Below, piece after piece: positions 39,938 through 40,777 of a DNA stretch of 64,000 nt. Numbering within the stretch: the first letter of the stretch is position 1; each line of letters begins with the position of its first letter. The translations under genes were made by a program, and so were the position numbers. The notes beneath the pieces are model-generated. The model searched no databases and had not been told where the DNA came from. It worked only from the letters and a program-made list of their open reading frames with translations. Source of the DNA: Escherichia coli (lineage in GTDB: Bacteria > Pseudomonadota > Gammaproteobacteria > Enterobacterales > Enterobacteriaceae). Location of the stretch: NCBI RefSeq assembly GCF_030013205.1, contig NZ_CP122648.1; one strand, 5' to 3'.

Positions 39938-40669
39938 ATGAAAAAATGGAAAGTACGTAGCGCGTTGATAGCATTAGCCGTGCTGCTGGCCGGTTGTTCC
40001 AGTAATGCGCAGTATAATAGCAGTGCATCAGGCAATGTCGGCACCGCCTGGGGTGGGGATGTACACTCATCGGTTCAGGGCGTATCTGCTGAACGAGTCT
40101 GGCGCGATCCGGCAGAGATGATCGTTATTAGTTATTCGACTACTGTTCCTTCGGGCTACGACCGCGTTTATAGCATTCGTATTAACGAACTTGAATATGC
40201 TATTCGCGATGGTAATTTTAATTCTCTACCTATTACGCGGGTTTATGATTCGTCAAATAATGAACCACGCTATATTGTCCATGCCAGAGTCGGAATGAAT
40301 TATCAATTATATGTCCGCAATTACAGTCGTAACACCAACTACGAGATCGTTGCTACGGTTGATGGCCTGGATGTGCTGAACGGCAAGCAAGGTTCGCTGA
40401 ATAACAAAGGCTATATTGTGAATGCCGGAGATTCGTTAGCGATTAAAGGATTCCGCAAAGATAAACATACTGAAGCGGCTTTTCAGTTCGCCAACGTTGC
40501 TGATTCCTACGCAGCCAATTCGGCGCAAGGGGATGTGCGTAATACCGGGGTAATCGGCTTTGCCGCCTTTGAATTACAAGGCCCGGCGCAAAACGCGATG
40601 CCGCCGTGCTCTGGACAAGCCTTTCCGGCAGATAACAATGGCTATGCGCCGCCACCGTGTCGGAAATAG
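39938..40669 (+). CDS. lipoprotein of unknown function
   Basis: 243-aa ORF with lipobox (VLLAGCSS); no family recognised; lies between speA and speB. Confidence 0.7.
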   Translation: MKKWKVRSALIALAVLLAGCSSNAQYNSSASGNVGTAWGGDVHSSVQGVSAERVWRDPAEMIVISYSTTVPSGYDRVYSIRINELEYAIRDGNFNSLPITRVYDSSNNEPRYIVHARVGMNYQLYVRNYSRNTNYEIVATVDGLDVLNGKQGSLNNKGYIVNAGDSLAIKGFRKDKHTEAAFQFANVADSYAANSAQGDVRNTGVIGFAAFELQGPAQNAMPPCSGQAFPADNNGYAPPPCRK

Positions 40670-40735
40670 CAACCTCGCTTGATGCCTTGCCCATTTAAGG
40701 CGATAATTAGCACAAACTTGTGTTTCGCAAATCCA

Positions 40736-40777
40736 ACCCTTCCTCGTCGGGCCTAACGACGCGGAAGGGTTTTTTTA
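40736..40777 (+). terminator. intrinsic terminator after the lipoprotein gene
   Basis: CCCTTCCTCGTCGGGCCTAACGACGCGGAAGGG hairpin followed by TTTTTTT. Confidence 0.8.

Follow-up and report, generated by a model that had tools for sequence, protein, structure and literature searches.

The lipoprotein gene between speA and speB of Escherichia coli is probably ancestral, and the adjacency of the two genes in K-12 a derived loss

In Escherichia coli K-12 the polyamine genes speA and speB are neighbors. In the 64,000-nucleotide stretch of E. coli DNA analyzed here (the window), a third gene stands between them. Was this gene inserted into a core polyamine locus, or did K-12 lose it? The first-pass annotation of the window, made from the letters alone, favored the former and spoke of a "single-gene accessory insertion." We examined the reading frame and its signals, its distribution across genomes, the K-12-type junction, and the protein that the gene would encode.

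The reading frame and its transcription signals

The first-pass annotation had described a 243-aa lipoprotein ORF with an LLAGC lipobox between speA and speB, and our reading of the plus strand agrees, with the predicted cleavage site between LLAG and C20. The product begins MKKWKVRSALIALAVLLAGC (also given as MKKWKVRSALIALAVLLAGCSSN), and a GAGGGA ribosome-binding site can be read 7 nt 5' of the ATG. RefSeq places a CDS at the same coordinates, WP_000758884.1, "hypothetical protein," in a genome (strain K_EC180) that is 100% identical over the region; past it the gene order continues with speB (ATG 40805), loiP and tkt. The ORF list starts speA at a TTG at 37804, four codons ahead of the RefSeq ATG at 37816 (window 37804-37815), and gives loiP 325 aa against 252 aa in RefSeq (window 42535-42750); both longer calls are start-codon artefacts of the ORF listing and represent no feature. 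Antisense ORFs within the lipoprotein gene, such as the one at 40443..40694, were without support and were set aside.

The possibility that the frame lacks homologues and is not a real gene can be dismissed. Homologues are abundant, and comparison with the Escherichia, Kluyvera and Salmonella orthologues gave a dN/dS of 0.07-0.09. The same comparisons yielded 0.007-0.033 for speA, which puts the lipoprotein gene ~3-12x higher, and lower values still for speB. Judged by these substitution rates, the ORF is shown to be under purifying selection and to be a real gene. At least 1,000 contigs encode the exact protein, variously labelled hypothetical protein, lipoprotein, outer membrane lipoprotein or membrane protein. 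The gene itself is already known, and annotations of its product as a hypothetical or outer-membrane lipoprotein go back more than two decades. In O157:H7 Sakai, where tktA is 3810, yggG 3811, yqgB 3815 and metK 3818, the numbers 3812-3814 are left for speB, the lipoprotein gene and speA, and by this numbering the gene is ECs3813. In S. Typhimurium LT2 it is presumably STM3085, as gene order indicates. Searching the literature under its locus tags and by subject turned up no functional work on the lipoprotein.

Next, we considered the sequences on either side of the gene (Table 1). The first-pass annotation had placed a terminator after speA and another upstream of speB, and both were recovered as predicted hairpins with T tails, each with a z of −5.45 against shuffles and with no equally stable fold among 200 shuffles. 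The speA hairpin, whose stem is followed by TTCTTTTT, has a dG of −23.4 kcal/mol and occurs at the same place, with altered stem sequences, in 14 other enterobacterial loci. The speB-proximal hairpin (dG −24.4 kcal/mol) has one internal mismatch and is missed by the consensus scanner, but was detected by the repeat search. All 14 of its pairs form in 11 sequences, with two compensatory pairs and an invariant loop, and it is near-invariant from Escherichia to Klebsiella. Rfam returned nothing credible in 39600..40900. The speB-proximal hairpin is predicted to end transcription of the lipoprotein gene in this strain and of speA in K-12. The interval from the hairpin to the ATG is too short for a promoter, so speB transcription must read through the hairpin, and the element suggests a leaky terminator or attenuator, or a small RNA of ~60 nt.

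Table 1. Features of the speA-speB region, with positions in the window.
Feature	Position	Strand	Basis
speA, biosynthetic arginine decarboxylase, upstream neighbor	37816..39792	+	RefSeq annotation of identical locus and ORF list
Segment differing between gene-carrying and K-12-type alleles	39775..40727	.	Allele alignment
speA intrinsic terminator (predicted), 15-pair hairpin 39809..39842 and T-rich tail	39809..39851	+	dG, shuffles, alignment
−10-like TACAAT, candidate own promoter, ~32 nt 5' of the lipoprotein ATG	39900..39905	+	Sequence
Perfect 7-bp inverted repeat CTGCATT-AATTA-AATGCAG, between the −10-like site and the RBS	39908..39926	+	Sequence
Lipoprotein gene (243 aa), ATG start	39938..40669	+	ORF list, RefSeq annotation, homologues, dN/dS
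Type II signal peptide (predicted), ending at the codon of lipidated Cys20	39938..39997	+	Sequence; Cys invariant in family alignment
Promoter-like TTGATG-N17-GATAAT, between the lipoprotein stop codon and the speB-proximal hairpin	40679..40707	+	Promoter scan
Terminator-like hairpin 40735..40771 and T7, 27 nt before speB	40735..40777	+	dG, inverted-repeat search, alignment
speB, agmatinase, downstream neighbor	40805..41725	+	ORF list and RefSeq annotation

The promoter-like site that precedes this hairpin is conserved across genera as CTTGAAG...GCGATAAT, and the 61-bp spacer of K-12 keeps TTGAAT-N17-GATAAT. Site and hairpin together lie at 40679-40777 of the window, at 1605-1710 of the K-12-type locus (L001) and at 18240-18295 of the Salmonella locus (L095); in C. 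freundii (L009 5790-5935), and also in C. gillenii (L018), an additional ~110 bp separate the two.

On the other side of the gene, the alignment of the spacer between speA and the lipoprotein gene in 15 loci contains the terminator hairpin, an AT-rich stretch, the conserved −10-like TACAAT and an equally placed, conserved RBS (AGGGA/AAGGA). TACAAT, TACTAT, TACCAT or TATTAT is aligned at the −10-like site in Salmonella, Citrobacter, Kluyvera, Klebsiella and "Enterobacter"; no good −35 accompanies it, and the scanner called no promoter there. Conservation of the inverted repeat that follows it does not extend beyond Escherichia; the repeat may be an operator or form a hairpin in the 5' UTR. Since terminators stand on both sides, the gene looks monocistronic, a transcription unit of its own.

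Distribution of the gene and the K-12-type junction

To compare the spacing of speA and speB, as the first-pass annotation had proposed, we used 5,426 complete E. coli genomes, which fall into gene-carrying and K-12-type states. The whole segment is present between the two genes, at 97-100% identity, in 3,550 of them (65%); as WP_000758884.1 the ORF is an annotated gene that E. coli conserves at this site, which is the outcome that the first-pass annotation itself had named as refuting its interpretation. Another 1,865 genomes share one gene-less K-12-type junction with at least 98.8% identity and the same 61-bp spacer, and in these speA and speB are adjacent, 137 bp apart, as the first-pass annotation had stated for K-12. 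About 10 genomes are arranged otherwise, one of them by an IS1 in the gene together with a rearrangement.

Orthologues were then sought in one genome per bacterial species, and their positions were checked by tblastn on the fetched loci. They are 52-94% identical and lie directly after speA and, in all but Salmonella, also before speB. An orthologue stands between the two genes in E. whittamii, E. albertii and two cryptic Escherichia clades, in several Citrobacter species, and in Kluyvera, Klebsiella, Intestinirhabdus, Phytobacter, Kosakonia, Entomohabitans and "Enterobacter BIGb0383." Among the genomes sampled, then, all other Escherichia species and clades have the gene in place, as do at least eight further genera of enterobacteria. 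In Salmonella it directly follows speA and is separated from speB by a 7.5-kb island, despite which the speB-proximal hairpin stays with speB. This island (L095 10733-18240) is wedged precisely between the stop codon of the lipoprotein gene and the leader hairpin of speB, and consists of six genes: a GntR/FCD regulator, a mannitol dehydrogenase-like gene, Zn-ADH, Ldh_2, DUF386 and an alpha/beta-hydrolase.

Within Escherichia, dS amounts to 0.31-0.32 for the lipoprotein gene, 0.28-0.32 for speA and 0.19-0.26 for speB, and a value so near that of the flanks fits co-inheritance with speA and speB. Annotation and a repeat search revealed no IS, integrase, tRNA or meaningful direct repeats at the gene borders; the sole repeat near them is the TTTTTATAT tail found after both terminators, which does not coincide with the K-12 junction. 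Plasmid carriage was also considered and rejected, as the "plasmid" matches were mis-filed chromosomes or non-mobilizable megareplicons.

Because the gene occupies the same site across Escherichia and other genera, has a dS equal to that of its flanks and shows no mobile-element features, its presence is shown to be ancestral and the speA-speB adjacency of K-12 to be a derived loss; the gene has been at this site since before the split of the enteric genera. Of the "single-gene accessory insertion," the variable presence thus holds, whereas the insertion does not. A horizontally acquired single-gene island in an originally contiguous speA-speB operon would account for the absence of the gene from K-12-type genomes and for its own promoter-like site and terminators. 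Its base composition (GC 48.5%, GC3 46%) also departs from that of speA and speB (GC 54-55%, GC3 62%), as that of a foreign gene might. The distribution, dS and borders of the gene speak against such an event, as does the gene-less allele, which is a single haplotype restricted to part of E. coli, and we regard an insertion as very improbable. Since the gene co-diverged with its flanks, its low GC3 more likely reflects weak codon selection or low expression than a foreign origin. Taken as a whole, the locus probably holds an ancestral, vertically inherited enterobacterial gene that forms its own transcription unit and encodes a member of an uncharacterised lipoprotein family.

The structure of the gene-less allele bears on how the loss came about. 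Compared with textbook K-12 speAB, the window has the same flanking genes, speB-proximal hairpin and promoter-like site; K-12 is without the lipoprotein gene and the speA terminator, so that speA runs straight to the speB-proximal hairpin, whereas here two terminators and a third gene part speA from speB. About one third of E. coli, K-12 and B strains included, are without the gene through one shared event, which removed speA's own terminator too. The two alleles are 99-100% identical up to ~18 nt before the speA stop codon and again from 40728 onwards. In between, K-12 has 61 bp where the window has 936 bp (39792..40727), and two SNPs fall in the final 18 nt of speA; the divergent patch spans 39775-40727 of the window and 1575-1653 of the K-12-type locus L001. 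The two changes, ACT and GAG, are synonymous; Salmonella and K. aerogenes share them, whereas none of the gene-carrying Escherichia does.

The 61-bp spacer of K-12 aligns in register with window 40670..40729, keeping TTGA-N17-GATAAT. A right-anchored ungapped count gave 26 matches compared with 18.8 ± 2.0 in shuffles, a count reached by 16 of 5,000 shuffles, while the gapped global-alignment score did not separate the spacer from shuffles; we hold the homology of the two stretches with moderate confidence only. The K-12 spacer is nearer to Citrobacter spacers (31 matches) than to that of E. coli (26). Import of the K-12-type allele by homologous recombination, from a divergent and already gene-less enterobacterial lineage, would fit a spacer whose similarity to the window is only at inter-genus level and too diverged for a recent in-situ deletion. 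The closeness to Citrobacter, the speA 3'-end changes shared with Salmonella and K. aerogenes and the 99-100% identity beyond the patch point the same way. On the other hand, no donor was found among the loci compared, and the patch is very short, two SNPs and 61 bp being a thin basis, so we put the chances of such an import at about even.

The gene is also disrupted in other lineages, by two independent insertions and by frameshifts. An end sequence, GGAAGGTGCGAACAAGTCCCTGATA, which we take to be that of IS5, interrupts it at TTAG near 40435 (L094 3499-3527) in an allele that corresponds to a 448-member protein cluster; IS1 interrupts it near 40237 in another E. coli strain (L003 2980-3005), and Salmonella has frameshifted alleles (P0049, P0051). 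The lipoprotein gene is dispensable, and dispensability under many conditions would explain its repeated loss.

Predicted localization, fold and family of the protein

The N-terminus has the parts of a type II signal peptide. An n-region of MKKWKVR, with four basic residues, precedes the hydrophobic SALIALAVLL, and the lipobox L17-A18-G19-C20 fits [LVI][ASTVI][GAS]C, with Cys20 invariant in 37 of 37 homologues. In E. coli, Asp at position +2 retains a lipoprotein in the inner membrane. Here the three residues after Cys20 are Ser-Ser-Asn, so that +2 and +3 are both Ser; with Ser in place of Asp at +2, Lol-dependent transfer to the outer membrane is predicted. By these sequence rules the precursor would be exported by Sec, lipidated at Cys20 via Lgt, LspA and Lnt, and passed by Lol to the outer membrane, where its beta-sandwich body would hang into the periplasm on a disordered tether of ~13 residues. 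We consider lipidation and a periplasm-facing outer-membrane anchor likely to very likely. By kind, the protein is an ordinary Lol-type lipoprotein from an uncharacterised family.

An AlphaFold2 model built with the family alignment (mean pLDDT 82.4, pTM 0.73) has a disordered tether at residues 19-31 and an all-beta body of 14 strands at ~34-213, mostly with pLDDT >90. Residues 214-243 (window 40577-40666) form a tail that is modelled at low confidence, yet conserved. In enterics this tail reads AFPAD-NGYAPPPCRK, with a second Cys at 224, and a Cys224-Cys241 disulfide probably staples it. The tails of beta- and alphaproteobacterial homologues read AFPxD..YAPPPxY(R), without Cys, and the C-terminus of distant homologues is a PPxY-type motif, for instance YAPPPRYR or YAPPPNYR. 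The family alignment keeps E136, D142, D145, R173, N128 and Y159 invariant, and invariant aromatics include W38, Y66, Y122, Y159, Y191 and several Phe.

The first-pass annotation recognized no family for the ORF, and a domain search bears this out. Pfam had no match for the lipoprotein, for 36 homologues or for 10 distant members; NCBIfam gave only signal-peptide-level matches far below the cut-off; PHROGs matched the signal peptide only; PADLOC gave no match, and a PDB profile search nothing with E < 1. Homologues, in turn, are spread across Proteobacteria. In a profile search of 1.84 billion cluster representatives, 4,180 clusters (at 50% identity) were found at E ≤ 1e-3 and 517 at E ≤ 1e-30. 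By these searches the lipoprotein belongs to a large Proteobacteria-wide family that has no Pfam, NCBIfam or PDB match.

The top NCBIfam match, the amidase activator ActS (NF040883), is likewise a lipoprotein, and the first ~50 residues of the two align; membership was rejected at 17.4 bits against a cut-off of 375, the match being limited to signal peptide and linker. Lipoproteins of the DUF1425/YcfL type (PDB 3o0l) are also Lol-sorted to the outer membrane in Enterobacteriaceae and have small beta-sandwich bodies; the present protein is unrelated to them in sequence, its body of 14 strands is roughly double theirs in size, and a conserved proline-rich tail follows at its C-terminus. MATH/TRAF-like and Ig-like beta-sandwiches (SPOP, USP7; the de novo Ig 8bl3) are also among the closest known systems.

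Distant family members contain long low-complexity linkers, and one of them, P0283, is circularly permuted, its N-terminal GTxWGE module having moved beside the tail. The central domain (residues ~90-220) is 33-36% identical to hypothetical proteins of large Rhizobiales phages (171-490 kb), among them those of Sinorhizobium phage Phosso, Rhizobium phage RHph_I1_18 and Agrobacterium phage Atu_ph07 (records H71-H74), and it has a structural match in BFVD with an E of 1.6e-7.

Possible roles and meaning of the layout

Because of its beta-sandwich fold and many invariant aromatics, we read the body as a binding module. The lipoprotein would be a non-catalytic module that binds a glycan or a partner protein of the envelope, and its position in the polyamine locus would reflect inherited gene order and no functional coupling; from the model, we give this reading about an even chance. 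It is the default for such a beta-sandwich, and E136, D142, D145, R173 and N128 could equally form a catalytic or metal site. An enzyme using this cluster, such as one that hydrolyses or modifies peptidoglycan or an envelope glycan, would make sense of the invariant E136, D142, D145, N128, R173 and Y159 in a TVDGLDV...GY...GFR core that is kept from enterics to Betaproteobacteria and jumbo phages. Yet no enzyme family was matched by sequence or by fold, and the family has no invariant Cys, His or Ser nucleophile beyond the lipobox, which makes an enzyme unlikely.

More doubtful still is a part in polyamine physiology, in which the lipoprotein might, for instance, hold SpeA at the envelope or modulate it there, or act as a periplasmic sensor or binder of agmatine or putrescine. 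Across Enterobacteriaceae the gene has kept its place directly after speA, SpeA is reportedly associated with the envelope, and Trabulsiella guamensis has a 40%-identical paralogue two genes from speG. Against this stand the terminators on either side of the gene, which forms its own transcription unit, the synteny of the whole metK-speA-speB-loiP-tkt block in any case, and the one third of E. coli, prototrophic K-12 included, in which the pathway works without the gene. Furthermore, homologues outside the enterics never adjoin spe genes: at ~50 non-enteric loci no neighbor recurred, those seen being hisD, metJ, recO, a P450, a beta-lactamase-fold protein and phospholipase C. The Trabulsiella paralogue (L012/L036 6001-6759) lies between ynfD and ynfC, and its vicinity to speG, the spermidine acetyltransferase gene, is probably a coincidence. 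The lipoprotein is the enteric member of an unnamed Proteobacteria-wide family, marked by its PPPxY/PPPC tail, circularly permuted variants and jumbo-phage homologues, and we would give just as little weight to the idea that its biochemical role in the envelope is a new one.

The most interesting version, if true, would be one in which the role of the lipoprotein touches the flanking polyamine pathway, together with a near-invariant hairpin that gates speB. Apart from this, the locus matters in two ways, neither of which would surprise a specialist. A widespread and well-conserved envelope protein family is still unnamed, plausibly because the model strain is without the gene. Moreover, the "speAB operon" of K-12, with its two genes side by side, is a derived minority state, found in about one third of E. 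coli, and the ancestral majority layout has an independently transcribed lipoprotein gene and two terminators between speA and speB. Given these two terminators and the third gene, regulatory conclusions drawn in K-12 may not transfer to O157, O104, Salmonella, Citrobacter and Klebsiella.
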